Of a stretch of 17,338 nucleotides of DNA, positions 1,367 through 14,209 are shown one piece after another. Origin of the DNA: an uncultured archaeon (GTDB lineage Archaea > Asgardarchaeota > Thorarchaeia > Thorarchaeales > Thorarchaeaceae); NCBI GenBank assembly GCA_964590575.1, contig CAZPWM010000067.1, positions 1-17,338 of the forward strand, in the 5' to 3' direction. Positions within the stretch are counted from its first letter, which is position 1; every line of letters begins with the position of its first letter. A program made the position numbers and the translations under genes. The notes beneath the pieces are model-generated. The model was not told the DNA's origin, made no database searches, and was given only the letters and a program-made list of their open reading frames with translations.

Positions 1367-4300
1367 ATGTCGGATGAAGGGAATTCAGGATTTGGAATAC
1401 TTAGACTTACCAAGTTTCTTATTGCACTACTTGGAACGCTAATTCCCGTTTCTTGCACAGCATGGCTGCTCTTCATAATTCCCTTTGGTTCAGCACAATT
1501 CAAAGGTCAAGCTGTGATTCTTTCTGGTGTCTGTTTCTTTGCAGGATCTTGTGCACTCCTTTTTTCTAAACCTTCCAAAGAGAAGGGGCTTTTATGGTTG
1601 AGTGGTTTTCTTATCACAATTGGAGCAATACTTCTCACTGGTATCCAAGTCATGTACACTTTGGCTCTTGAGTTTCCAGTTGAAACTCTAGCAATCATTG
1701 GTCTTCCAACCACACTTCTGATGATATGGAATCTTCAAAGGAAGTCAGTTGCTGATGAGAATACTCCTGCACAACAAGATACGTTTGGAATCTCTCTTTC
1801 TCGAATGGTCATTAAGAGAGACGTCGTGATTGCAGCTGTTGAACTAACAGAGTTTCCTGAAGAACACTTTCAAAACAAAGACCCTGACCCTTCCAAATAT
1901 CAATCCTTCTTCAACATCCTAAGAGTCATGGTTCTATCTAGTTTTCCGATAGCACTTAGATATGAACGTGTCAGGAAAAAGATGCGAGTGTTATACCTGA
2001 CCTGGGCGCAGAATGATGTCGCGCTCTCTGAATATCTTGAGACCCTCGCAGACACGGTTAAAGGAAACCTCACAGGGTTCAAACAAAAGGTCCACAATCG
2101 GTTTCATGGACCCACCATCAACCCCTTGGCAACTCCGGTGACAACATACCTTCTCGGTGAACCACTCAGTGTGGATGACCCCCGTCAGAGAATAGATGCT
2201 ATCTCTGTCATGGCTGAAGTCCTTCTTGGTTTGCCTGACGGGATTTTTCAGGTGACAGTTATTCCAAGACGGACTAGTAATCGCACCGTGAAATCTCTGG
2301 AACAGCAATACATGGCTGAGAGTGAGAGAGTTCAGTCAACAATAATAAAACCTCGATCTACTCTCCTCTCGGGTGAAATACAAGAGTCTAAGACCAGTAC
2401 AGACATGGGAGCTATCAAGAAAGCCAAGTCGCTGGAGATGCAGATAGAAAGACTGAGTAACAGTCATCTGTGCGAAGTTGAGGTGTCTGCTACATGCTGG
2501 GACCGAGAACCAAAGATTGCTGAGAAACTGTCAAGGAAACTTGCAGGAGTACTTCGGGGTACACTCATTCCTGCAGATCCACAAAATCATCTCTCTATAG
2601 AAACCCAAAAGAACATACATGAAGCTAAGAAGCTGATTGAGGGTGAAACCATCGGGAAGACGACTCTCTTATCCATTGAGGAGGCCAGTGTCTACTTCTC
2701 CCTTGCGCGAAACGACCTAGGCATCTCGGTTGCGGATTATGCATCATTTCGTACCAATCCAACAGACCGACGTAGCATCGAGAACAAGCACAAAGATGAG
2801 GATTCAACTGAAGGGATCAGACTTGGAAAGGTCCTTGATGACTCTGGAACTCCCATTGCTGATTTTGTAATCCCAACTATCGATCTGGCATCGCATAGTG
2901 TGATGGGCGGTGACACAGGCAATGGAAAGTCTGTGACCGAGTCGAACATCACGTTAGAATTACATCGGTTAGGAATCAACTTCACGAAGCTGTTGCTCTC
3001 AAAGAATGAGGACCATCTTCGGTTTCTGCGGAAAGTGAAGAGTATCCTTGTTCTCACTCCAGGCGATGAAACTGTCACTCCTGTCAGATTCTCATTCAGC
3101 GATTTCTGTGAGGGTATGCATGTGAACCATATCATCAATGACACAAAAGCAATCATCATTGCTGCAATGCCTGCTTATGGTATCATCAAGGAGTACATGG
3201 AGAGGGTCATCGAACTCACCTTCGAGAGACTAGGCTGGGACCGTGAGTCCAACATCCCAGGATTGTCCATTGTGCTCTCGGACTTTCTTGAGACCCTGCC
3301 GCTCATCAAGGAGGAGGTCCAGTACAGCACCCGTGGCAACGAAGATGTGTGGGGTGCGCTCTATATCAGGTTCAACAAGCTATGTAGCGGTGTTCTCAAC
3401 AGCGTCTTTGGAACGACCTCAGGAATCACCATGAGAGAACTGACCAAAAAGCCCAGTCTTATTCTGCTATACGCACTATCCAAAGATGAGCAGTCATTCT
3501 TTGTCTTCTGGTTCGTGTCAAGAGTAGCTCGCTACTTTGAGGCAATGAAGAAGATTGAGATGAAGCACAAGAAGGGTCTGAAGTATAACGTGGTCATCGA
3601 GGAGTCCCACAGGATTCTCAAGCTCGAGACCGGTGTCAAGATGGATGAGGAGCACGGTGCGAAACAGGCAGCTGTTGACACGATCACCACCACCATGAAG
3701 GAGTCGAGAAGTTCAGGGGTAGGCTTCACACTCATCGCACCAGGTTTCTCAGAACTCACAAGCAGCGCATATATGATGGCGCTGAACATATTCATGCATG
3801 GGCGAGGCGCAGGAACAGATCGCAGGCTCATCGGTGATCAGATGAACTGTACCGAGGACCAGATTCGAATGATGGGGTCCTTGCCAATTGGCGAGGCTGT
3901 GATCCGTACAGCTAGTATCAGCAGACCAGTGAGGGTGCGGGTCAACGACATTGTCGCACTGTATCCAGAACTGGCTCCTGGGAAACCGGTGACTGATGCT
4001 GAGATCATAGAGCACATGAGACCGGTCTTCGACCAGAGTCCGCATTTCCAGACCAAGTCAAAGTATGCACTGAACTCATTGAGACCAAACGAACTATCTC
4101 TTCAGCTAGCAACAAACAAGATAGACATTACCAGCGCGCTCAGACTCTATGCAATGTTCGATAGTGAGTTGTTCGGGAGAGTCTTGAAAACGCTCTTCGA
4201 GGTCAAGAACCCTCGACTCGGAGCTCTTATCCTACGTAACATTGCGAGGCTTGCAGGACCAGATGATGCTCCTTTGCCATTCTATGCTCATCATCTGGTC

Positions 4301-4870
4301 TGGCGTATCTCAAACCTGGAAGGGTCCAGTATACCACTTCTCGTTGAGATAGCCGAAGAGCTGAGTCATCTTCTGCCGATCAGCGAACTGCCAGCAGATC
4401 ATCTCGGACGGTATCACACAAGACTCAGTCTTGAACTTCAGAAGAGGCTTACCACATTCAAGATTGACACAAAGAAAACCGCATCTGACGTGAAGTCAGC
4501 TGTGAAACTGGCACTTGACGAGAACAAAAGATTCCTGGATTCCAGTGCATCACACGATCAGATAGTAGAGCCTGATGAAGTACTTAAGAAGAAGGTGGGC
4601 GCCATGGTTCGTACTGACCAGTTTGTCAGTAGATACCTGTCATTGTTTCAGATGGCTGCTGAGGGCAACTATGAACCACTAGTACAGCTGATACTAACGT
4701 TTGCCAGACGACTTGATTCACATACTTCTGATACCACTGAGGCAGCCACTCTCCTACTGCATGAGGCAAGAGCAGCTCTGACCTCTCCAGACAATGATGC
4801 ACTGTGGGCCGCAGTGTATGATATGGTCAGGTCTGAAATCAACGACTCGGGGTCTGAAGTTGCCGCATGA
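1367..4870 (+). CDS. Membrane-anchored HerA/FtsK/VirB4-superfamily P-loop ATPase (DUF87-like)
   Basis: About four hydrophobic segments in the first 120 aa; IRLGKV...DLASHSVMG leading into Walker A GDTGNGKS (2909-2932); LGWD helical insert; Walker B VVIEESH (3590-3610); arginine-finger ESRSSG (3701-3718); C-terminal SLPIGEAVI...RPVRVRV typical of HerA-like ATPases. A GGAGG motif precedes the ATG. Confidence 0.85.
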   Translation: MSDEGNSGFGILRLTKFLIALLGTLIPVSCTAWLLFIIPFGSAQFKGQAVILSGVCFFAGSCALLFSKPSKEKGLLWLSGFLITIGAILLTGIQVMYTLALEFPVETLAIIGLPTTLLMIWNLQRKSVADENTPAQQDTFGISLSRMVIKRDVVIAAVELTEFPEEHFQNKDPDPSKYQSFFNILRVMVLSSFPIALRYERVRKKMRVLYLTWAQNDVALSEYLETLADTVKGNLTGFKQKVHNRFHGPTINPLATPVTTYLLGEPLSVDDPRQRIDAISVMAEVLLGLPDGIFQVTVIPRRTSNRTVKSLEQQYMAESERVQSTIIKPRSTLLSGEIQESKTSTDMGAIKKAKSLEMQIERLSNSHLCEVEVSATCWDREPKIAEKLSRKLAGVLRGTLIPADPQNHLSIETQKNIHEAKKLIEGETIGKTTLLSIEEASVYFSLARNDLGISVADYASFRTNPTDRRSIENKHKDEDSTEGIRLGKVLDDSGTPIADFVIPTIDLASHSVMGGDTGNGKSVTESNITLELHRLGINFTKLLLSKNEDHLRFLRKVKSILVLTPGDETVTPVRFSFSDFCEGMHVNHIINDTKAIIIAAMPAYGIIKEYMERVIELTFERLGWDRESNIPGLSIVLSDFLETLPLIKEEVQYSTRGNEDVWGALYIRFNKLCSGVLNSVFGTTSGITMRELTKKPSLILLYALSKDEQSFFVFWFVSRVARYFEAMKKIEMKHKKGLKYNVVIEESHRILKLETGVKMDEEHGAKQAAVDTITTTMKESRSSGVGFTLIAPGFSELTSSAYMMALNIFMHGRGAGTDRRLIGDQMNCTEDQIRMMGSLPIGEAVIRTASISRPVRVRVNDIVALYPELAPGKPVTDAEIIEHMRPVFDQSPHFQTKSKYALNSLRPNELSLQLATNKIDITSALRLYAMFDSELFGRVLKTLFEVKNPRLGALILRNIARLAGPDDAPLPFYAHHLVWRISNLEGSSIPLLVEIAEELSHLLPISELPADHLGRYHTRLSLELQKRLTTFKIDTKKTASDVKSAVKLALDENKRFLDSSASHDQIVEPDEVLKKKVGAMVRTDQFVSRYLSLFQMAAEGNYEPLVQLILTFARRLDSHTSDTTEAATLLLHEARAALTSPDNDALWAAVYDMVRSEINDSGSEVAA

Positions 4871-7800
4871 TTCGTCAGATAATACAGAGCGCCACCCAGA
4901 GAGAGAGTATGATGAGACCCCCAACGAGTCAGAAGGTAGGGAGATTCCTGATGAGATCGAGAAGGCTGCTCAGGATGCCGCAGAAGACTTTGATCGTCAG
5001 CAGGAGATTGAGCAGTCAGCCATTGAGGCTGCTAAGGAGTTCGATGAGTACGACTCACTGCGCAAAGAGATCGAAGACCTTGCTGAGGCGGCCGCAAAAG
5101 AGTTCGATGAACTTCAGCGGGAGAAAGATGAGGTCGCAAAGGAAACCTTTGAGGATGACCTAGAGAATGACCTTGACGAGGTCCGGGATGAACTCCATAA
5201 TGAATATGTCAATGACATGAACCACCAGCTGGAGGGAGTCTCGAGGAAAGACTGTGATGCAGAAGAAGAGAGTGATGAGAGAGCTTCCTCAGAGGCAACG
5301 GAAAGCAGTGAGTCATACGAGGTTACAGATACGGGAATGGTCTATGCAACGGAGGTCAGGAGTGAAACTGAGGGAAAGGCTCAATCTGAGATTGAATCTG
5401 AGAACGAGGCACAGGAACAGACTGAGTCCAGTGAGCCCGTTGATGATGCTGAGGGATTGCCTGATGACCAATTCAGGAACAGAGTCACAAAACAGGAATC
5501 AGAGTATGAACCAGTTGAAACATCACCCTCTGGCTCTCTAGAAGACACGGAGACACAGCGAATCCAGCAACCCGAGTCCAACGAGATGCCAGAGACGCCT
5601 GAGTATGAGACCTCCATCGAGGAAAATGAACATCGCGACCACTCTGAGGTCAAGGAAGAGGAATCCACCGGGTCAACGATTGAAGGTGATGTGGATTCAG
5701 TTGAGGAACCAGAGGTTGAGGCTGAGGTTGAGGACACACTGGAGGTGGAGGAGTCCTCTGAAGATTCGAACGAGATCCCTGAACCTGAGATGGATGGGAG
5801 TGTGTCCGTAACCTCTGAGGTTGAATCATCTGAGACTATGGAGCAGGAAGAGCCCTCTCACAGAGAAGAGGATACGCTTGAGGGTGAATTGGAGGCTGAT
5901 ATTCCGGAGGAGTTCATCGAACGAGTAGAGGAGCTAGTAGAGCAACTCGAGGAGTTGGAAGCTGAGTCTGAGGAACGAGTCATTGTCGAGGCTCTGACTG
6001 GAGAACCTGTGGTCGACAGGACCCTTGAGACACGGTCATTCTTTGGGGAGGATGACGAGGTTGCTGAGGAAGAGGAGGTCCGGAGACGACTGCGTGACCT
6101 CTTCGGCGAGCTCTCGGAGGAGGAGCGTGAGCGGTTCAAGGAGATAGTGCGGTCGCGGTTGAAGTCAGAGGAGGACCTTGAGGAATTCATCCAGCACCAT
6201 CCCTCGATTACACTCAGTTCTGACTTCATGCAAAAATTGAAGGATGCTCGTGCTTATGTAAAGGGTAAGAGGTCTGGCCTAGTCCCCAAGCTCATTCGAG
6301 AGTTATGGGTACTTGAAATTCAACGGGAATGGACCAATGTTGTGGGCGAAGCTGTCAGAAAATCAATTGAACGAAGTCTTGATGCAGCACGAAAAGTAGA
6401 ATCGGTCACGCCCAAACATGCGCGGAAGAAGAAGCGGAAGACGGGCTATCATAAGAAGACGGAGCACTTGATTAAACTCCATAGACCGATGACTGGAAAG
6501 AGGCCCGTCGGGTCGTTCGAGAGATACCGGGAGTGGTTGGAACAGAACTATCCTGCTGTCTGTGAACGGTTAGACTATCCTGAACTATTAGACTCGGTGC
6601 GGAAGTTCTTCGAACTGAGGAAAGCTCTTCGACGTCGTAAAACCATCAAGCATCATGAGCTTGAGGACCTTGCACGTGAACTTGAGATTGCACCTGATAC
6701 AGCAATAGGATGGTTTCTCCATGGTAAGTCTCCACATCTCTTTCAGATCGTGGACTCGGCTCTCTCGATGCGGGATGGGATGCGACTCAAGGCTGCGTTG
6801 CTCAAGAAGCTTGATGGTATTGAGGGGTGGTCAGAGCTAGAACGTCGGTTGAAGCAGGTGTACCCCGGGGAGGCTTACAAGAAGATTGCCAATTACAAGG
6901 ACAAAAAGAGTCGAACCAAGGAGTTCTTCGTCTTTCTGGACTATCTGGAGCGGGGTGGGACCAAGAAGGGCATCGCCAAGTTGTCCGGCATCTCGCAGCG
7001 TCGGGTTCGGGCTTTCTTCGATGGTGAGTTGCCGTGGCTGCTGCGGCATGTGCTGGCGAAGGAGGGACGACTCGCGCCCTCAAAGCGGTACAGCCGTCAT
7101 CTCTCATCTACCCATAGGGTCAAGTTTCGCTCCATCACGGTGCGAGGCAAGGAGATTGGGTCCTACGCGGAGTTCAAGAGGCTGGTGGACCGAGACTTTC
7201 CGTGGCTCAAGGAACGATCGGACTACGCTCGACTCCTTCATGTTGTCAGGGTCTACTTCTTGGCGCGACGCAGGTTTGAGGGGATGAAGTATGCCATCCG
7301 CAATGAGATCGTTGAGTTTGCTGAGAAGCATGACGTTTCATACCAGACGGTCACTGAGTGGCTCGTTGGCAGGTCGTTGCCGATGGTCATCGGGATGCTT
7401 GAGCAGGCACTGTCGGTCACTGAAGCAAAAAAGGAACTAAAGGTGATACTCAAGAAGCTCACTGGAGTGGTTTCGCTCTCGGAGTATCATAAACGTATGA
7501 AAACTCTCTATCAACTAGAGGAATTGAAGGTCCTTCCAAACTACAAAAAGGACTACGAACTTGTCAAGGAGTTCTATCGATTTCTCAGAGCACTTGAGAA
7601 AGGGGGTCTCTATACCGATATTATCAAGCGTGGAAACTTAAGTATGGGATCAACAAAGCGTAGGCGTTTGGATTTTGGATTACCACGTTTGGTCCGTATT
7701 GCCGCATCTATACCATCTCTTCCCCCAAAGAAAGATTGTAAATGGCTTCCTTTGAATGTGACTAAGAAACAAGAGCCGGTTGATTTCATCGAGGCACCCA

Positions 7801-8666
7801 CTAGGATAAGCCATCAAACTGACTTGGAGGGTTTCTTGAGAGGGCTAGTGAGTAAGCAGCGAGAGCTTACTAAGGAAGAATCCGAAACCAATCAGCTAGT
7901 CAATGAATTCATGTATTTGCTCGGACTAATTGCTTCAGATGGGAGTTTTGGAAAAAAGGACGGTTTCTCAAGTCAGGCGCAATTGAAACTTAGTAAGAAA
8001 TATGCTTGGAGCATAAGAGTTGGAACTGCTTTCAGTCAGGCACTCGAACGGTTGGGTATCAAAGTAACACGTGGCAAGGATAGAGAAACACGGACCAAGA
8101 AAGGTACACTTGTAAGACTAATGACTTGGCAAAGTCAAAACAAACCATTATTCCACTGGATGCGTCGCACACTTTTTGGTTTGAAGAGTGGACCTAAGAG
8201 AAGACTAAGAATCGATTGGATTCTATCTCTGTCAATCCGAGAAAGAATTGCTTTCATTCAAGGAATCGCTGATGGTGATGGGCATGCATCTGTGAGGGGT
8301 CTTATAGCTGGCATCGCCACTAAATATAACAAAGAATCACTTAGCAGGATTCTTGCATCACTTGGAATCGAGTCAGCTAATAACTCCAATGGACTAGAGA
8401 TTCGAAAAAAGAAATTTCTGAAAATAGCTTCAGACCTTCCAATGTTCAGACATGCTGATAGTCGTCTCTTTAGGCTTAGAGAAATCTGTGCAATGATTGC
8501 TGCAATGAAACATGCAAAAGTAAGTGATGAAGAACGACAAAAAATACTTGAGTATCATCGACGAGGCTTCAATCCTACTCAGATTGTACCATTACTCTGG
8601 TCCGAATATGGGACTGCCCGTCGTTCTGGCACTATAGAGAAGGCTATCAGCGATGCTGATTTGTAG
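4860..8666 (+). CDS. Giant multidomain protein: acidic N-terminus, tandem HTH-like repeats, double-motif LAGLIDADG endonuclease and C-terminal HTH-like tail
   Basis: The ORF is open 4794-8666; the probable start is TTG at 4860, overlapping the ATPase stop. LAGLIDADG motifs LLGLIASDG (7917-7943) and IQGIADGDG (8256-8282) are 113 codons apart and both retain the catalytic Asp. The first ~420 aa are strongly E/D-rich. No HINT/intein termini are visible. Confidence 0.85.
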   Translation: MPHDSSDNTERHPEREYDETPNESEGREIPDEIEKAAQDAAEDFDRQQEIEQSAIEAAKEFDEYDSLRKEIEDLAEAAAKEFDELQREKDEVAKETFEDDLENDLDEVRDELHNEYVNDMNHQLEGVSRKDCDAEEESDERASSEATESSESYEVTDTGMVYATEVRSETEGKAQSEIESENEAQEQTESSEPVDDAEGLPDDQFRNRVTKQESEYEPVETSPSGSLEDTETQRIQQPESNEMPETPEYETSIEENEHRDHSEVKEEESTGSTIEGDVDSVEEPEVEAEVEDTLEVEESSEDSNEIPEPEMDGSVSVTSEVESSETMEQEEPSHREEDTLEGELEADIPEEFIERVEELVEQLEELEAESEERVIVEALTGEPVVDRTLETRSFFGEDDEVAEEEEVRRRLRDLFGELSEEERERFKEIVRSRLKSEEDLEEFIQHHPSITLSSDFMQKLKDARAYVKGKRSGLVPKLIRELWVLEIQREWTNVVGEAVRKSIERSLDAARKVESVTPKHARKKKRKTGYHKKTEHLIKLHRPMTGKRPVGSFERYREWLEQNYPAVCERLDYPELLDSVRKFFELRKALRRRKTIKHHELEDLARELEIAPDTAIGWFLHGKSPHLFQIVDSALSMRDGMRLKAALLKKLDGIEGWSELERRLKQVYPGEAYKKIANYKDKKSRTKEFFVFLDYLERGGTKKGIAKLSGISQRRVRAFFDGELPWLLRHVLAKEGRLAPSKRYSRHLSSTHRVKFRSITVRGKEIGSYAEFKRLVDRDFPWLKERSDYARLLHVVRVYFLARRRFEGMKYAIRNEIVEFAEKHDVSYQTVTEWLVGRSLPMVIGMLEQALSVTEAKKELKVILKKLTGVVSLSEYHKRMKTLYQLEELKVLPNYKKDYELVKEFYRFLRALEKGGLYTDIIKRGNLSMGSTKRRRLDFGLPRLVRIAASIPSLPPKKDCKWLPLNVTKKQEPVDFIEAPTRISHQTDLEGFLRGLVSKQRELTKEESETNQLVNEFMYLLGLIASDGSFGKKDGFSSQAQLKLSKKYAWSIRVGTAFSQALERLGIKVTRGKDRETRTKKGTLVRLMTWQSQNKPLFHWMRRTLFGLKSGPKRRLRIDWILSLSIRERIAFIQGIADGDGHASVRGLIAGIATKYNKESLSRILASLGIESANNSNGLEIRKKKFLKIASDLPMFRHADSRLFRLREICAMIAAMKHAKVSDEERQKILEYHRRGFNPTQIVPLLWSEYGTARRSGTIEKAISDADL
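4953..5111 (+). repeat. Three tandem peptide repeats EIExxAxxAAx(E/D)FD
   Basis: EIEKAAQDAAEDFD (4953), EIEQSAIEAAKEFDE (5004) and EIEDLAEAAAKEFDE (5067). Confidence 0.7.
6507..7703 (+). repeat. Internal ~216-aa tandem duplication, each half made of two ~100-aa HTH-containing units
   Basis: VGSFERYREWLEQNYP...DYPELL...ALS...LKKLDG...NYK...KEFFVFL...LERGG...LPWL aligns with IGSYAEFKRLVDRDFP...DYARLL...ALS...LKKLTG...NYKK...KEFYRFL...LEKGG...LPRL. The period is 648-651 nt. Confidence 0.8.
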
Positions 8667-8757: not shown

Positions 8758-10311
8758 ATGACTGATTCTAAGGACAAATTTGAGGAACTCTCAAGACTCA
8801 GAGAGGAATCAAAGCTTGGCGGTGGAGAAGAACGAATCAAGAAAGAGCATGAAAAAGGACGACTTACTGCGAGAGAACGTCTTGATAAGCTTCTTGATCC
8901 AGAGTCATTTGTTGAGATTGATGAGTTCGTCGTCCATCGAGAAACAGGATTTGGTTTGGAAGATCAGAAGATTCTCGGCGATGGTGTTGTTACTGGTTTT
9001 GGCACCATAAATGGTCGTAAGGTATTCATCTTCAGCCAAGACTTCACTGTATGGGGTGGTTCGCTTTCTGAGATGTATGGGGGTAAAATGGTTAAGATAA
9101 TGGAATTTGCAATGGAAACGGGTGCTCCAATAATCGGGATCAATTCCGGAGCCGGCGCACGGTTATATGAAGGAATCCGCTCACTCGTCAGTTACGCGAA
9201 CGTGTTCAAACTCAACACCCTCGCGAGCGGAGTCATCCCGCAGATATCGGCGATAATGGGTCCGTGCGCAGGCGGAGCGGTGTACAGCCCCGCAGTGACG
9301 GACTTTACGATAATGGTGAAAGGAACTTCCCAGATGTATATCACTGGTCCAGATGTTATCAAAACGGTCACAGGCGAGGAGGTCACCCACGAGGAGCTGG
9401 GTGGAGCAATGACCCATAACTCACTGAGTGGCGTTGCCCAATTTGCCAGCGAAGATGAGGACCACTGCTTCGAACAGATAAAGACACTTCTCAGTTACAT
9501 GCCTCAGAATAATCTCGAGGACCCCCCAAGGATTGACACTGGTCATGCCCCTAACGATGTCGACGAGTCAATTGATGAGTTCATACCTGATGATCCGAAT
9601 AAACCGTACGATATGCGCGAAGTAGTGAAACTGCTTGTTGATAATGGTGAGTTCTTCGAAGTGCATGAACACTGGGCAAAGAACATGCTAGTCGGATTTG
9701 CTCGATTTGATGGACGTTCAGTGGGAATTGTGGGGAATAATCCAGCTCACCTTGCAGGAACCCTCGATATCAACGCTTCAGACAAGTGTGCTCGGTTCGT
9801 CAGATTCTGTGATGCGTTCAATATTCCAATTGTTACATTCATGGATGTACCCGGATATCTCCCCGGAACCACTCAGGAATGGGGCGGCATCATCCGACAT
9901 GGAGCAAAGATTCTCTATGCATTTGCAGAGGCAACCGTGCCGATGATCACAATTGTCACTCGTAAGGGCTATGGTGGCGCCTTTGACGTCATGGCATCAA
10001 AGCATATCGGGGCGGACCTCGTCTACGCCTGGCCCACTGCTGAGATTGCAGTAATGGGTCCGGATGGAGCGATTAACATCATCTTCCGGAAGGAGATCGA
10101 GGCTGCGAAGGACAAGGAGAAGAAGCGGGCACAGCTTGTCAAGGAGTATCGAGAGAAGTTTGCGAACCCCTATGTCGCGGCTGGGCTCGGATACATTGAC
10201 AAGGTCATCTTCCCGCGAGAAACACGACCACTAATTTGTAGTGGTCTGGAGATGTTGGAGAGCAAGAGGAAGACAAGACCCCCTAAGAAGCATGGGAATA
10301 TTCCTCTATAA
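8758..10311 (+). CDS. pccB: Acyl-CoA carboxylase carboxyltransferase (beta) subunit, PccB / methylmalonyl-CoA decarboxylase alpha family
   Basis: 517 aa with family motifs GRLTARERL..LLDP, GDGVVTG.G.INGR, QDFTV.GGS, ASGVIPQISAIMGPCAGGAVYSPA.TDF, RFVRFCDAFNIP, GGIIRHGAK, AWPTAEIAVMG and C-terminal KKHGNIPL. Confidence 0.93.
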   Translation: MTDSKDKFEELSRLREESKLGGGEERIKKEHEKGRLTARERLDKLLDPESFVEIDEFVVHRETGFGLEDQKILGDGVVTGFGTINGRKVFIFSQDFTVWGGSLSEMYGGKMVKIMEFAMETGAPIIGINSGAGARLYEGIRSLVSYANVFKLNTLASGVIPQISAIMGPCAGGAVYSPAVTDFTIMVKGTSQMYITGPDVIKTVTGEEVTHEELGGAMTHNSLSGVAQFASEDEDHCFEQIKTLLSYMPQNNLEDPPRIDTGHAPNDVDESIDEFIPDDPNKPYDMREVVKLLVDNGEFFEVHEHWAKNMLVGFARFDGRSVGIVGNNPAHLAGTLDINASDKCARFVRFCDAFNIPIVTFMDVPGYLPGTTQEWGGIIRHGAKILYAFAEATVPMITIVTRKGYGGAFDVMASKHIGADLVYAWPTAEIAVMGPDGAINIIFRKEIEAAKDKEKKRAQLVKEYREKFANPYVAAGLGYIDKVIFPRETRPLICSGLEMLESKRKTRPPKKHGNIPL

Positions 10312-10532
10312 GATTGGTTTCCAGTACGGACTATGGTTTTTTGGAGTTCAAACATATTCACTCCGTTTCCGCCAAGATGAAGGTCCTACTTACTCATCGA
10401 AAGGTCGATCTATCTCAGGAGCACCTGCTACCCTCATCAACGAAATACTGACTGGGACAATTATACTTTAAAACAACGGACTTTCTTAAAGAAACTCAGA
10501 TTCTCAAAAAATGAATTACTAAGGTTACGACA

Positions 10533-10922
10533 ATGATTATTCCCATTTTCTTAGGGGTACTATGTTCGAGATATTCAGACACTAAACGATCTGCACTGAT
10601 TGTGGCTGCAGGAATCGGATTCTTGATTGGTATCATTTCAGGACTACACATATTGCCACTTGCATATCCACTCTATGCAATAGTCACTCACACAACTCAT
10701 ACCTCTTATGGTCTGTTCTACAACATTGAAGCCTATCTGTTTTACAGTGGTTGGAGGATTTGGAGTGGCGGAGTGATCGATCTCATCTGGCTCTCGCCAC
10801 TAATTCCACTACTCTTCATACCTACAGGTGCGATTGGCTGTCTTCTTGGAGTTTACTTTTCGTGGAGTCGCGTTCACAGGTTTCCAACTGAAGTTTGGCC
10901 CCAAGAGAAACCAGACCGTTGA
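10533..10922 (+). CDS. Small hypothetical membrane protein (cargo of cassette 1)
   Basis: 129 aa with several hydrophobic segments (SALIVAAGIGFLIGIISGL; LIWLSPLIPLLFIPTGAIGCLLGVYF). Its last ~7 codons and stop are read out of frame from pccB tip copy 2. Confidence 0.65.
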   Translation: MIIPIFLGVLCSRYSDTKRSALIVAAGIGFLIGIISGLHILPLAYPLYAIVTHTTHTSYGLFYNIEAYLFYSGWRIWSGGVIDLIWLSPLIPLLFIPTGAIGCLLGVYFSWSRVHRFPTEVWPQEKPDR

Positions 10923-10999
10923 TATGCAGTGGTCTAGAGATGCTGGAGCGCAAGAGAAAAACACGACCCCCAAAGAAGCACGGGAATATTCCTCTGTGA
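10901..10999 (+). pseudogene. pccB 3'-end fragment, copy 2 (32 codons plus stop)
   Basis: Encodes PRETRPLICSGLEMLERKRKTRPPKKHGNIPL*, versus PRETRPLICSGLEMLESKRKTRPPKKHGNIPL* at 10213-10311. By hand count there are 19 nt differences in 99, and only one changes an amino acid. Confidence 0.95.
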
Positions 11000-11264
11000 A
11001 CCACATCTCTTCTCAGTTGATTCAAGATAGCATTGAGTCTATTGAACGGAATAACTTATCTAGACACCCAACTAAACATATGTTGAATGGGATTACTGCT
11101 ACTATTTTGATTTAATTTTAAACTAGACAACAATCAGAAGGATAGCAATCACGACTATCGCGGAAACCACTTTCAGGATTTGCTTATCACTGCAGAACAG
11201 CATGATAATAATATTAAAGACCAATTCCTTGATTAATACAAGATGAGTGAACTAGGTGAGCACT

Positions 11265-11570
11265 ATGAGAATTGAGATCAATATGCCATCAAAGAAACAG
11301 CTAGCGGATTTTTCCAAGCTTTATAACATCCGAAAACTCGCTCTTTTTGGTTCTGTCCTTCGTGATGATTTTGGTCCGGACAGCGATATCGATGTTCTCG
11401 TAGAATTCGATCCTAAGCATATTCCAGGTTTTTTTGAATTAATGCAGATGGAAGAAGAGCTCTCCATCCTTTTTGGCAGGTCAGTAGACTTGCGAACTCC
11501 TCGGGACTTAAGCAGGTACTTTCGTGAAGAAGTGATAGCGACGGCGGAGGTCCAATATCTTGCGCCCTGA
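11265..11570 (+). CDS. Minimal nucleotidyltransferase (MNT), MntA-type antitoxin
   Basis: LALFGSVLRDDFGPDSDIDVLVEF (GS...DxD) and EEELSILFGRSVDL. An AGGTGA SD at 11254-11259 favours ATG 11265 over GTG 11256. Confidence 0.92.
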   Translation: MRIEINMPSKKQLADFSKLYNIRKLALFGSVLRDDFGPDSDIDVLVEFDPKHIPGFFELMQMEEELSILFGRSVDLRTPRDLSRYFREEVIATAEVQYLAP

Positions 11571-11910
11571 TGAAATCAGGCTTCGTCATATGCTTGATGC
11601 AATCCGCGAAGCACTTTCATTCACGGGTGACAAGACTCGTGAAGATATAGAATCCAATCGAATACTTAGTCTTGCACTAGTTCAGCTTCTTGAGATAATT
11701 GGAGAAGCAGCAAATGGTATAACAATTGAATTTCGTCATAGTCATCCAGAAGTACCTTGGGACTCCATGATTAGAATGCGTCATAGATTAATCCATGGCT
11801 ATTTCGATGTGGATTTAGACATTGTTTGGCAGACGATCGTTGCAGACTTGCCGCCACTGCTAGGGCGGCTGGAAGTCATTGTGAATAATATCGAAAAACA
11901 CCATAAATGA
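11560..11910 (+). CDS. HEPN (DUF86, HepT-like) ribonuclease toxin
   Basis: LEIIGEAA...HPEVPW...MRHRLIHGYFDVDLDIVW (Rx4HxY motif). The TTG start overlaps the MNT stop, the classic MNT-HEPN arrangement. Confidence 0.92.
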   Translation: MRPDEIRLRHMLDAIREALSFTGDKTREDIESNRILSLALVQLLEIIGEAANGITIEFRHSHPEVPWDSMIRMRHRLIHGYFDVDLDIVWQTIVADLPPLLGRLEVIVNNIEKHHK

Positions 11911-11912
11911 GG

Positions 11913-12158
11913 GGGGTTGTCAACATCTCCATCCAGAATGAGAACAAGACTGCAAAGGACAAGGAGAAGAAACGGGCTGAGCTTGTGAAAGATTAATGTG
12001 AAAAGTTTACGAATCCCTACATTGCAGCTGTACTAGGGTACATTGACAAGGTGATCTTCCCCCGAGAAACGAAACCGCTAATTTGTAGTGGTCTGGAGAT
12101 GCTGGAGAGCAAGAGGAAGTCGCGACCTCCAAAGAAACACGGAAATATTCCATTATGA
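11913..12158 (+). pseudogene. pccB 3'-end fragment, copy 3 (81 codons plus stop, with an internal stop)
   Basis: Colinear without indels with 10066-10311: GVVNISIQNENKTAKDKEKKRAELVKD*CEKFTNPYIAAVLGYIDKVIFPRETKPLICSGLEMLESKRKSRPPKKHGNIPL*. The premature TAA is at 11994-11996. Confidence 0.95.
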
Positions 12159-12691
12159 TTCTCAAATAATACTGAGGTCAAACTACGCTTTTCTACTCAA
12201 GAAAATCACCTCTTCGATTTGCAGGTCAGAATCCCTCTCCTTCTGGTATCCATCTTGGAACAATCATTGGACTAAGAAGTAGTCCATCTGATAGGAACGG
12301 GCAAGAATTAGATCGCATCGATGCAATGGCAGATACGAATTGAAGATGTACAAAGAAGACTCATTACATCATACTAGCTTCTTCTAGGTGGGACTGGAAC
12401 TAGTGATTGATGAAATGGTTGCTATGCTTCCTCTCACAACTGATCCATGGATGGGGTGAAACATTGCCTAAGGCACGGGAAATGATGATTTTAAAAAGTG
12501 CATCATCTGTTCTGCCAAGTTTCATCACGGTTCTTGACGTAGAGGGATACTACTTAGGTGCAGTCATAGAGTTTGAGAAGCCGTTAAGGCAATCATGGTG
12601 CGAATTGGCCAATCCAAGCATATGGGAAAGCGAGCAATTGAGATGGCAAACTAGCGGTTTACAGGCATCATGCGGGGAGGGAAGGCTCTAG

Positions 12692-14209
12692 ATGTCGACA
12701 CATCTTATAACAGCCAAGCAGCTCTTGTACGTAATCGTGTCAATTCTCATTGGAATTGCCCTCTACATTGCAAGTCGCTATAGCTACCTGCTTTTCCATA
12801 GTGTTGTTGAGGAATTCAGCATTCTTGTTGCGTTTGGAGTATTTCTCGTTGGATGGTACTCTATCAAATACACTGAGAACAGAGCTTTCCTCATTTTGGG
12901 AATTGCTTTCTTCTTTATTGGTTGGATCGACTTTTTTCACACTCTTGCTTACCCAGGTATGGGCGTCTTTCCTGGATCTGATACTAATCTCGCTGCACAA
13001 CTATGGATTGTAGCTCGATACTTGGAGAGCATTACGCTTCTCATCGCTCCGTTGGCTATACGAAGAAGTATCAACAGGACCTATGTAGCAGTTGCGTACT
13101 CTGTCATTTCTGGTCTTCTACTAGGAACGATTTTCGTCTGGCGTGTGTTCCCAGTCTGCTTCATTGAGGGTGTTGGCCTCACCCCATTCAAAATCATCAG
13201 TGAATACATCATCTCAGCCATCTTGGTCATGAGTGGTTTCCTGTTCTACAACAGAAGAAGCAAGTTCGACTCCTCTACCATACGACTCCTGATCATCGCA
13301 GTCAGTTTCACAATAGCTTCTGAACTCGCTTTTACGCTCTATACTGATGCCTACGGCATTGCTAACGCGGTAGGGCACTATTTTAAGATAATCGCTTTCT
13401 ACTTCATCTACCAAGCAATTATTCAAGCGAGCCTAGTCCGGCCATATGACACTCTATTCAAAGACCTGAAGCAATCAAGAGAAATGGAAGCTACACATGC
13501 CACTCAACTTGAAGCACTTAACAAGGAGTTGGAGTCTTTCTCTTACTCGGTATCACACGACCTGCGAGCCCCTCTAAGAACTGTGGATGGATTCAGCGTC
13601 GCCTTGGAAAAAAGCTCTGCAGATCGACTTGATGACGTTGGTCGACACTACTTGAATCGTATCAGAGCAGGATGTCAACGGATGAGTGACCTCATTGATG
13701 CGCTCCTGCAATTATCACGATTATCCAGAACCCAGCTCCAGCGAACTACTGTGAGTTTGACCGCTATAGCACGCGAGATCCTTAACACACTGGCTCAGAC
13801 ATCACCGGAGCGCAACGTAGCGTCTATAATAGCAGATGGAATGACTGTCAAAGCAGATGAACATCTACTGCATATAGCAATGACCAATCTACTTGAGAAT
13901 GCTTGGAAATTCACTAGATCCCATTCGAAAGCGAGGATTGAGGTGGGAAAAGCCACACAGGAAGGTCGAGAGGTATTTTTCGTACGCGATGATGGTGTTG
14001 GTTTTGACATGAAATATGCTGACAAGATATTCGTTCCATTTCAACGCTTTCATTCACATAAGGAATTCGAGGGGTCTGGAATAGGCTTGGCCACGGTTCA
14101 GAGGATTATCTCGCGTCATGGCGGCCAGGTTTGGGCTGAAAGCACCCCTGAACAAGGAACGACTTTCTACTTCACACTTGGGCCGAAGGAAACGAACATC
14201 AATCAATGA
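12692..14209 (+). CDS. Membrane sensor histidine kinase, MASE3-type sensor plus HisKA and HATPase (Cph1/BphP-like kinase core)
   Basis: MASE3-like SYLLFHSVVE...DFFHTLAYPGMGVF...NLAAQLWIVARY...GLTPFKIISEY...SELAFTLY; H-box SYSVSHDLRAPLR; N-box NLLENAWKF; G1 VRDDGVGFDM; G2 GSGIGLA. Confidence 0.92.
   Translation: MSTHLITAKQLLYVIVSILIGIALYIASRYSYLLFHSVVEEFSILVAFGVFLVGWYSIKYTENRAFLILGIAFFFIGWIDFFHTLAYPGMGVFPGSDTNLAAQLWIVARYLESITLLIAPLAIRRSINRTYVAVAYSVISGLLLGTIFVWRVFPVCFIEGVGLTPFKIISEYIISAILVMSGFLFYNRRSKFDSSTIRLLIIAVSFTIASELAFTLYTDAYGIANAVGHYFKIIAFYFIYQAIIQASLVRPYDTLFKDLKQSREMEATHATQLEALNKELESFSYSVSHDLRAPLRTVDGFSVALEKSSADRLDDVGRHYLNRIRAGCQRMSDLIDALLQLSRLSRTQLQRTTVSLTAIAREILNTLAQTSPERNVASIIADGMTVKADEHLLHIAMTNLLENAWKFTRSHSKARIEVGKATQEGREVFFVRDDGVGFDMKYADKIFVPFQRFHSHKEFEGSGIGLATVQRIISRHGGQVWAESTPEQGTTFYFTLGPKETNINQ

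Follow-up and report, generated by a model that had tools for sequence, protein, structure and literature searches.

The window analysed here, a stretch of 17,338 nucleotides (nt), is contig C67 of a 3.4-Mb Thorarchaeota-type Asgard genome (G000; 194 contigs, 91% complete). Its subject is a pair of forward-strand genes, one for a membrane-anchored ATPase of the FtsK/HerA/VirB4 superfamily (P0001) and one, overlapping the 3' end of the first, for a giant protein (P0002, hereafter the partner) in which a polyanionic N-terminal region is joined to helix-turn-helix (HTH) arrays and a LAGLIDADG endonuclease domain. Judged from the sequences of this pair and its relatives, ATPase and partner are one translationally coupled accessory module, and the pattern of coupling appears far beyond chance despite the kinship of the genomes compared. 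We rate the pair as belonging to the HerA-type motor-plus-nuclease kind, with an architecture of which we found no published description. Our leading interpretation, which is tentative (probability about 0.4), is that of a conflict-type, defence-like motor-nuclease system.

Residue numbers of the partner are counted from ATG 4794, the start of a frame of 1290 amino acids (aa) in which residue 23 corresponds to TTG 4860; loci, genomes and contigs are designated by L, G and C numbers. The parts of the two genes are as follows, with the basis of each assignment in brackets.

1367-4870, + strand: gene of the membrane-anchored FtsK/HerA/VirB4-superfamily ATPase, 1167 aa (open reading frame (ORF), translation, homologues, AlphaFold model)
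1394-1744, +: ATPase membrane anchor, about four hydrophobic helices, residues 10-126 (model and Kyte-Doolittle hydropathy)
1820-2701, +: ATPase alpha/beta N-domain, residues 152-445, of uncertain affinity, possibly like the VirB4 N-terminal domain (predicted secondary structure)
2816-3976, +: ATPase P-loop motor domain, residues 484-870 (alignment and VIA-align)
2909-2932, +: Walker A, residues 515-522 (alignment of 28 sequences)
3587-3610, +: Walker B, residues 741-748 (alignment of 28 sequences)
3995-4846, +: ATPase all-helical C-domain, residues 877-1160 (model)
4860-4870, +: overlap of the ATPase 3' end (stop TGA 4868-4870) with the probable partner start (sequence and N-terminal alignment)
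4860-8666, +: giant partner gene, about 1268 aa from TTG 4860, 1290 aa from ATG 4794 (ORF, alignment)
4860-6203, +: acidic, predicted-disordered N-terminal region of the partner, residues 23-470 (composition, conservation blocks)
5028-5048, 5154-5219, 5310-5348, 5901-5945 and 6090-6152, +: conserved short motifs of the acidic region
6456-7793, +: two repeated multi-helix HTH modules of the partner, about residues 555-1000 (model; weak HTH_23 match)
7890-8513, +: monomeric two-lobe LAGLIDADG endonuclease domain of the partner (Pfam, fold match)
7917-7949, +: LAGLIDADG motif 1 (Asp1049)
8256-8288, +: LAGLIDADG motif 2 (Asp1160, Asp1162)
8508-8663, +: C-terminal three-helix HTH of the partner, after the LAGLIDADG domain (VIA-align)

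The ATPase and its partner

The partner frame is open from ATG 4794 to 8666. In an alignment of 14 partner homologues, six called N-termini (P0019, P0023 and P0025-P0028), which read 'MPxEFSE' or 'LPHD', lie opposite L23-P24-H25 of the window protein; because these six align exactly there, TTG 4860, codon 23 of the frame, is the best-supported start, and with it the two genes overlap by 11 nt. The ATG codons at 4794, 4797 and 4818 are possible alternatives, the last of them being the one used by the database gene call P0018. The overlap of the ATPase stop (TGA 4868-4870) with a TTG start at 4860, noticed in an earlier note that was made from this DNA alone, is thus backed by the homologues. 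A look for sequencing runs that cover positions 3900-5900 listed 20 of DNA and none of RNA.

The two genes are also co-conserved, as the proposal of a coupled pair in that note implied. An automatic pass yielded 28 distinct loci with sequence downstream of the ATPase (nine more end inside the ATPase and were unusable); at 26 of the 28 a same-strand ORF starts between −110 and +55 nt from the ATPase stop, and the fraction of Asp plus Glu (D+E) in the first 300 residues is at least 0.24 for 24 of those 26 tightly coupled ORFs. The two loci outside the 26, L026 and L024 (213 nt left), also run into open charged frames. Among the 18 mapped loci with downstream DNA a same-strand ORF follows the ATPase in every case (18/18); where complete, these ORFs measure 594-1898 aa, and at L004, L048 and L049 the contig end cuts the partner ORF, leaving 338-598 aa. 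Over the first 300 residues the D+E fraction of these 18 ORFs is 0.18-0.37. Overlaps of 4 nt (ATGA) are common at the junctions, and gaps are of 55 nt or less. The corresponding D+E fraction for the genome background, taken over the first 300 residues of ORFs of at least 150 aa, is 0.126 ± 0.036 (n = 2501); a value of 0.25 or higher is reached by 11 of these 2501 ORFs and a value of 0.28 or higher by seven, five of which are members of the partner family. ATPases at coupled loci are 23-73% identical to P0001 and come from other Asgard families as well (L043, L050), and the three ATPase loci of this genome (C67, C8, C10) are each followed by an acidic partner ORF. When the neighbouring ORFs of 19 loci were clustered, the recurring genes were the ATPase (19 loci), the partner (17, by BLAST) and an acidic gene of about 200 aa (5), and nothing else. 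A mirror-tree comparison gave a Spearman rho of 0.29 between the ATPase and the first 300 aa of the partner, and of 0.05 between the ATPase and the C-terminal part of the partner; these values are suggestive only, because the 120 pairs from which each was calculated are not independent.

The earlier note had described the first gene as a membrane HerA/VirB4-like ATPase, and both parts of the description agree with our results. The Walker A (GxxxxGK[ST]) and Walker B (hhhh[DE]E) motifs are present in P0001, with G515, G520, K521, E745 and E746 invariant in the alignment of 28 sequences. Matches to hidden Markov models are weak: no Pfam family was matched, DUF87 and HerA_C included; the best NCBIfam match, to CedD (E = 3.8e-7), covers only residues 760-860 and scores 29.1 bits against a cut-off of 600; and the PADLOC models matched were HerA (weakly, E = 3.6e-6, 23.8 bits) and mad8. 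A sequence search of the PDB retrieved HerA (4d2i, E = 0.005), the ESM Atlas neighbours of P0001 are DUF87/HerA_C clusters, and the ATPase paralogue on contig C10 of this genome matches Pfam DUF87 with 30.4 bits. The AlphaFold model, built with an alignment of 28 relatives, has a mean predicted local distance difference test (pLDDT) score of 81.7 and consists of the four parts listed above, the first of which comprises helices at residues 11-37, 43-66, 71-102 and 104-126. Hydropathy plots have 3-4 transmembrane (TM)-like segments for the window ATPase and for 8 of 9 other Asgard relatives; there are two in L036 and none in the C10 paralogue.

Superposition of the modelled motor domain with VIA-align gave matches to DndH-C (7es4, Z = 29.8, 339 residues aligned, root-mean-square deviation (rmsd) 2.9), VirB4 (4ag5, Z = 28.8), HerA (4d2i, Z = 28.5), TrwB (1e9s, Z = 23.8) and FtsK (2iut, Z = 18.1), and the HerA chains of the SIR2-HerA and DUF4297-HerA defence systems were matched at Z = 22-25. 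The top Foldseek match of the whole model is full-length TrwK/VirB4 (8rtd_O, E = 4.8e-14, 901 columns), which VIA-align places on model residues 143-884 (Z = 19.4, 584 aligned); since this full-length superposition is loose (rmsd 13.2), a VirB4-type N-domain is possible only. The C-domain is 47-68% identical to that of the closely related locus L001, and its conservation is below that of the motor. We propose that P0001 is an ATPase of the hexameric-pump type, belonging to the FtsK/HerA/VirB4 superfamily and placed at the cytoplasmic face of the membrane.

The partner is a bipolar molecule: residues 23-470 contain 162 D+E and 39 K+R and have a net charge of −123, and residues 471-1290 are basic (net charge +72). 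The conserved blocks of the acidic region are a 21-residue repeat ('...AAKEFDE...') and residues 121-142, 173-185 and 365-470. Residues 470-1290, modelled with a pLDDT of 85.3, form two repeated HTH modules followed by the two-lobe LAGLIDADG domain; the HTH_23 match is weak in the window protein, and HTH matches are strong in its relatives. The LAGLIDADG assignment of the earlier note is borne out by Pfam (LAGLIDADG_3, PF14528, 33.2 bits against a cut-off of 22.5, E = 6.6e-8) and by the fold, which matches PI-PfuI (Z = 16.4), PI-SceI (16.0), WhiA (15.8), I-Tsp061I (15.0) and I-DmoI (13.5); Foldseek retrieved I-SceI and I-DmoI. Asp1049, Asp1160 and Asp1162, at the ends of the LAGLIDADG helices, are invariant in 18 aligned sequences, and because of this invariance the domain looks catalytically competent as far as its sequence can tell; which of the Asp positions is the catalytic one we presume from I-DmoI and I-CreI. 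In its two-lobe fold (Z = 13.5-16.4) and its acidic residues the domain is like the homing endonucleases PI-PfuI, PI-SceI, I-DmoI and I-SceI; unlike these it is neither borne by an intron or intein (no such context was found) nor free-standing, and makes up the C-terminal 20% or so of an ATPase-coupled protein of 1268 aa. The HTH that follows it (model residues 770-821) resembles those of Tc3 transposase, Myb and the small terminase (Z = 6-7.7). Sequence searches with the partner found nothing relevant in the PDB (E ≥ 0.24) and no match in PHROGs or PADLOC. A predicted complex of ATPase residues 484-1167 with partner residues 23-200 scored 0.15 and 0.00 against a mark of 0.32, in a run without controls, and counts neither way.

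Distribution and exchange of partner modules

When 400 Asgard genomes were searched with P0001, 83 of them gave a match. With the same query the module is found in 42 of 85 genomes of the family and in 15 of 27 of the genus, and several family genomes that are 97-98% complete have no match; the patchy distribution for which the earlier note had suggested looking is therefore observed. There are 2-3 ATPase paralogues per genome. Database homologues of P0001 are 54-78% identical, and all those with a source name come from metagenome-assembled genomes (MAGs) of Candidatus Thorarchaeota.

An acidic N-terminus combined with a variable C-terminal domain, which the earlier note had also anticipated, is what the partners display from locus to locus. 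The C-terminus is of the LAGLIDADG type in the window, L001, L032, L040 and L042, consists of five NUMOD3 repeats plus HNH in L039, and is made of multiple HTH domains only in L033, L038, L044 and one orphan partner; no domain was recognised by Pfam in the remaining C-termini. A pattern resembling HNH (CxxC...H...CxxCH), picked out by eye in L033 and in a 948-aa orphan on contig C22, was unconfirmed by Pfam at E ≤ 0.01 and was set aside.

Comparison of individual loci gives an idea of how this mosaic may have been assembled. Between the window and L001 the ATPases are 73% identical and the partners 50-87% over residues 1-510, with identity at 13-25% in the HTH arrays and 20-43% in the nuclease. 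Between L001 and L042 the situation is reversed: the ATPases are unrelated (0-47% per 60-residue window), the C-terminal parts of the partners are 28-55% identical, and the downstream urocanase flank is shared (67-92%). In a maximum-likelihood tree of 20 ATPases, the window, L001, the copy on contig C8, L033 and L004, all of one genus, are grouped with support 100/100, and L039 and L040, two sister ATPases of a single genome (support 93/96), are coupled to an HNH and a LAGLIDADG partner, respectively. Identity comparisons and tree together indicate that the N-terminal region of the partner travels with the ATPase, while the C-terminal part is exchanged.

Some copies are incomplete or stand alone. 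The ATPase gene on C8 (G000:C8 6209-9714; L032, at about 7540-7645) has a frame break near residue 446, at the boundary of N-domain and motor, which may mark a pseudogene or stem from misassembly; the LAGLIDADG partner that goes with it (9545-12856) is intact. Contig C22 of the same genome carries two orphan partners of 948 and 1034 aa, at 11257-14103 (L051) and 23752-26856 (L052), whose N-terminal block is 65% identical to that of the window protein and whose C-termini differ; no adjacent ATPase or remnant of one was found, even at E ≤ 10 with three parts of the ATPase as queries. The N-terminal block of the partner also occurs in fifteen database proteins (711-1287 aa), and among the ten newly scanned proteins of this kind no significant Pfam domain was found, one of them (P0186) having one match below the Pfam cut-off.

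Function of the module

These results can be considered in the light of known systems that join a motor to a nuclease. Like HerA-NurA, SIR2-HerA, DUF4297-HerA and DndFGH, the window encodes a motor of the FtsK/HerA class beside a nuclease or effector with which it presumably acts, and it shares with the HerA-effector pairs a matching motor fold and a variable effector. Unlike those pairs, its ATPase has a four-helix membrane anchor and a helical C-domain of about 290 residues, and the place of NurA, SIR2 or DUF4297 is taken by a protein of 600-1900 aa that combines a polyanionic, disordered N-terminus and HTH arrays with LAGLIDADG or HNH. No NurA, Mre11 or Rad50 genes are adjacent in the window or at the 18 mapped loci. 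The statement of the earlier note that it knew of no described LAGLIDADG partner of such an ATPase agrees with our literature search, in which no published description of a HerA-type ATPase paired with LAGLIDADG was found, although supplementary arCOG neighbourhood tables could hold an unlabelled mention.

The conflict-type reading is preferred because the evolution of the module, accessory, multi-paralogue and with mosaic partners, is conflict-like, and by analogy it may be modelled on the HerA-nuclease and HerA-effector pairs. It is also favoured by the AbiE or Argonaute genes beside some loci, by the toxin-antitoxin pair (MNT/HepT) of the window and by the genes of effector type, or the WYL gene, found next to distant relatives on bacterial plasmids. 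The ATPase would be anchored by its roughly four N-terminal helices to the cytoplasmic face of the membrane, and the partner would be a modular, polymorphic DNA-targeting effector. The polyanionic N-terminal region of about 450 residues, whose conserved short motifs are helical, would dock on the motor, or be handled by it, and may mask the basic, DNA-binding half of the partner, in which the HTH arrays would read DNA sequence and the nuclease part, LAGLIDADG here and HNH in some relatives, would be the cutting module. The membrane-bound motor would then engage DNA and license or load the sequence-reading nuclease, and the licensed nuclease would cut non-self DNA.

Several observations weigh against this reading. 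The sites recognised by LAGLIDADG domains and HTH arrays are long and specific, which would be unusual for a broad antiviral effector. Defence genes are not enriched near the module: counting ORFs within 6 kb of 14 loci and in control regions chosen arbitrarily from the same genome, PADLOC matches at E ≤ 1e-20 were 7/147 and 6/147, respectively, and neither this enrichment nor a cognate SIR2 or DUF4297 effector, as in the HerA defence systems of PADLOC, accompanies the pair. The flanks are mostly housekeeping genes, and no integrase was found among the flanking ORFs scanned with Pfam. Coupling seems not to be obligatory, to judge from the orphan partners and from G340 (92% complete), in which a partner-like ORF is present and the ATPase has no match. 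To our knowledge, a membrane anchor is not a feature of known HerA-effector defence systems; the relatives on bacterial plasmids are 23-26% identical over the motor only and have no anchor. Finally, the relatives compared are MAGs and close kin, and locus counts are not independent samples.

FtsK/SpoIIIE and Streptomyces TraB are membrane-anchored hexameric DNA pumps in which a sequence-reading HTH module sets direction or target, and the four-TM-plus-motor layout of the former and the TraB/clt mechanism of the latter offer parallels for a rather unlikely alternative, a DNA-transfer or mobilisation module. Its motor would pump DNA across or along the membrane, like FtsK/SpoIIIE, TraB or CedB/CedD, and the partner would be its site-specific loader and cutter, a stand-in for a relaxase or for the gamma domain of FtsK, which would bind a defined site with its HTH arrays, cut by means of LAGLIDADG or HNH and pass the DNA to the motor by way of its N-terminal region. 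The window pair has the membrane-anchored motor and the HTH reader, its nuclease types are site-specific with conserved catalytic residues, TrwK/VirB4 is the top Foldseek match, and the TrwB and FtsK motors are matched at Z = 18-24. It differs from FtsK and TraB in that the sequence reader is a separate polypeptide carrying a nuclease, and from FtsK also in that it is not universal in its lineage and that FtsK (Z about 18) is matched less well than HerA and VirB4. The layout of TM helices, N-domain and HerA/VirB4-like motor is that of CedD as described in PMC11868833, and CedD is the best NCBIfam match, though a weak one (29 bits against an equivalog cut-off of 600). In another report (PMC9905601), conjugation-type relaxases are given as missing from archaea, archaeal conjugation and the Ced/Ted systems having no recognisable ones. 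What speaks against this alternative is the lack of conserved machinery around the motor: in the clustering of the 19 neighbourhoods, which was not genome-wide, no VirB6/CedA-like channel or pilin gene, no other gene of a type IV secretion system, and no replication or integration gene was conserved beside the pair. Moreover, the diverged paralogues, orphans and patchy spread are unlike Ced, which PMC11868833 describes as conserved across its orders; a giant nuclease partner is not known to be described for Ced/Ted; and several partners have no recognisable nuclease.

An unlikely variant, specific to Asgard archaea, is a machine whose motor engages the DNA-mimicking tail of the partner and then either exports the sequence-specific nucleases to other cells or uses them as relaxase substitutes that allow chromosomal DNA to be cut and pumped from cell to cell. 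If the second option were true, it would amount to relaxase-less archaeal gene transfer between cells, with the target reprogrammed by swaps of HTH/nuclease cassettes.

Protein export proper finds its parallels in the FtsK-type EccC of type VII secretion and in the coupling proteins of type IV secretion, and would make the motor a protein translocase that threads the polyanionic N-terminus and delivers polymorphic nucleases into neighbouring cells. We consider this quite improbable. The conserved N-terminal part, the recombining C-terminal modules and the orphan genes with the same N-terminal block do follow the pattern of polymorphic toxins (as outlined in PMC3482391), and a small acidic third gene follows the partner at L036, L037, L038 and L041; a relative of the ATPase on a Streptomyces clavuligerus plasmid (L054) is followed by an ADP-ribosyltransferase-exotoxin protein (ADPrib_exo_Tox) and a small ORF. 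In contrast to polymorphic toxins, the partner has neither a signal peptide nor a TM segment nor a known trafficking domain by Pfam or hydropathy; the window contains no immunity-like gene, the partner being followed by a 91-nt spacer and then by a carboxyltransferase gene (pccB); and in place of typical toxins the C-terminal part consists of modules that bind DNA sequence-specifically and of nucleases of the homing type, which with their high site specificity would be poor general poisons. About 820 well-folded HTH/LAGLIDADG residues would have to be unfolded and then cross the membrane of a second cell, and no further genes of a secretion apparatus are conserved nearby.

Very improbable, in our estimate, is a host chromosome function, meaning a DNA transaction at the membrane such as FtsK/KOPS-like segregation or resolution, or the tethering of a locus, with a domesticated LAGLIDADG domain for which WhiA and the HO endonuclease are precedents. 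The housekeeping flanks agree with such a role, as do the occupation by the module of the position beside urocanase and histidine ammonia-lyase genes in two genera and the likeness to WhiA (Z = 15.8), where an HTH also follows LAGLIDADG. The LAGLIDADG domain of WhiA is catalytically degenerate, however, and the partner keeps its catalytic residues; about half of the family genomes have no match to P0001, those of 97-98% completeness included; the paralogues are multiple, fast-diverging and provided with swapped C-termini; and in this genome one copy is interrupted by a frame change. That a selfish gene of the homing-endonuclease type is lodged, without functional coupling, downstream of an unrelated membrane ATPase is scarcely credible: orphan partners exist and the nuclease modules exchanged between loci are of homing types (LAGLIDADG; NUMOD3 plus HNH), but the association holds down to 23% ATPase identity in three or more Asgard families, the start/stop overlaps point to translational coupling, and what remains with the ATPase is the N-terminal region, which has no nuclease, and not the nuclease part.

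The module would represent a new motor-plus-nuclease architecture, made of a membrane anchor, a polyanionic adaptor of about 450 residues and swappable readers of long sites, in a group of organisms, the Asgard archaea, whose conflict and gene-transfer systems are barely known. Nature also offers in the partners a collection of modular nucleases for long sites, probably active and joined to HTH arrays, which are of interest for DNA-targeting tools, and the bipolar window protein, whose net charge changes from −123 to +72 along the chain, is well suited to a test of autoinhibition of DNA binding by an acidic tail.

Neighbouring genes and distant relatives

The other genes of the window that enter the discussion are the following; two-component signalling genes are also found downstream of the pair, and no tRNA or Rfam family was found within the window.

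3-656, − strand: gene of at least 218 aa, a membrane protein according to the earlier note, divergent upstream, overlapping the HTH gene
530-1009, −: 159-aa HTH gene, divergent upstream
8758-10311: propionyl/methylmalonyl-CoA carboxyltransferase gene (pccB)
11256-11910: MNT/HepT toxin-antitoxin pair, 2.6 kb downstream of the ATPase-partner pair

The earlier note had the ATPase and partner share a divergent promoter region with the two upstream genes. Both of these exist on the reverse strand, as stated, but make up a multi-copy cassette of their own. The 159-aa HTH protein has homologues in 57 of 86 family genomes, in up to seven copies and often at contig ends; in 12 inspected loci the HTH gene is always followed by a homologue of the 218-aa gene, sometimes with a second paralogue of the latter after it, and in none of the 12 does the cassette stand beside another ATPase. 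We have therefore rejected these genes as members of the system, as they are unlinked to the ATPase at every other place examined. Apart from a weak HTH_23 match the cassette has no Pfam domain; it may be a repeated or mobile element.

The link to the pccB locus drawn in the earlier note is specific to the window, as other copies of the module sit beside different genes, and adjacency to pccB was discarded as a conserved feature: the L001 module, with its 73% identical ATPase, adjoins urocanase and histidine ammonia-lyase genes, and further copies are found beside eIF2-alpha/STT3 or beside methylmalonyl-CoA mutase and epimerase genes. In the window, the 3'-terminal part of pccB with the stop codon (10075-10311) is repeated twice in direct orientation, at 10900-10999 and 11922-12158, with a DNA identity of 80-81% and nearly identical peptides, the longer copy having an in-frame stop; the two intervals between the copies are taken up by an ORF (10533-10922) and by the MNT/HepT pair. 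Such an arrangement suggests that DNA was inserted behind pccB on two successive occasions, each of which brought or left a diverged copy of the gene end, in which case the 3' end of pccB would be an integration hot spot.

At some loci the module adjoins AbiE or prokaryotic Argonaute (pAgo) genes. At L043 (G109, of another Asgard family; 3136-6524), genes for a class II pAgo and a Cas4-like nuclease lie 1.8-5 kb upstream of the pair, from which they are separated by two ORFs of 135 and 383 aa. The small acidic genes form a family of about 196-262 aa (D+E 0.20-0.26) that is absent from the window and had no Pfam or PADLOC match in the members scanned. They directly follow the partner in L036 (15532-16122), L037 (4641-5231), L038 (3409-4062) and L041 (4625-5218) and precede the ATPase in L048 (725-1513); a similar acidic ORF, a candidate relative only, comes after the partner on C10 of this genome (L053 6098-6691). 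Their product may serve as an accessory subunit or have an immunity-like role.

Beyond the Asgard loci, a profile made from the ATPase alignment retrieved 12789 cluster representatives at E ≤ 1e-3, of which 3348 also pass a threshold of 1e-30; given the latter number, a function assigned to this family would annotate many genes now called 'ATP-binding protein'. DUF87 was present in 23 of 25 distant representatives scanned (about 1000 aa), and a search of a phage collection returned one unannotated record only. In the Streptomyces clavuligerus plasmid, a row of four genes with overlapping boundaries (L054 4303-10367) encodes a protein of 598 aa that has two TM-like segments, the ATPase, the ADP-ribosyltransferase-exotoxin protein and an ORF of 134 aa. 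The relative on a Ruminococcus plasmid is followed by a 515-aa protein of unknown function, and that on an Acinetobacter plasmid has a WYL gene upstream.

One last observation concerns the flank shared by the two genera mentioned above. The urocanase gene is split in both (L001 17137-19186, L042 1540-3587): an ORF of 128 or 131 aa carries the first 43 residues of Urocanase_N, and a separate ORF of 543 or 554 aa carries the rest, so that the split itself looks conserved.

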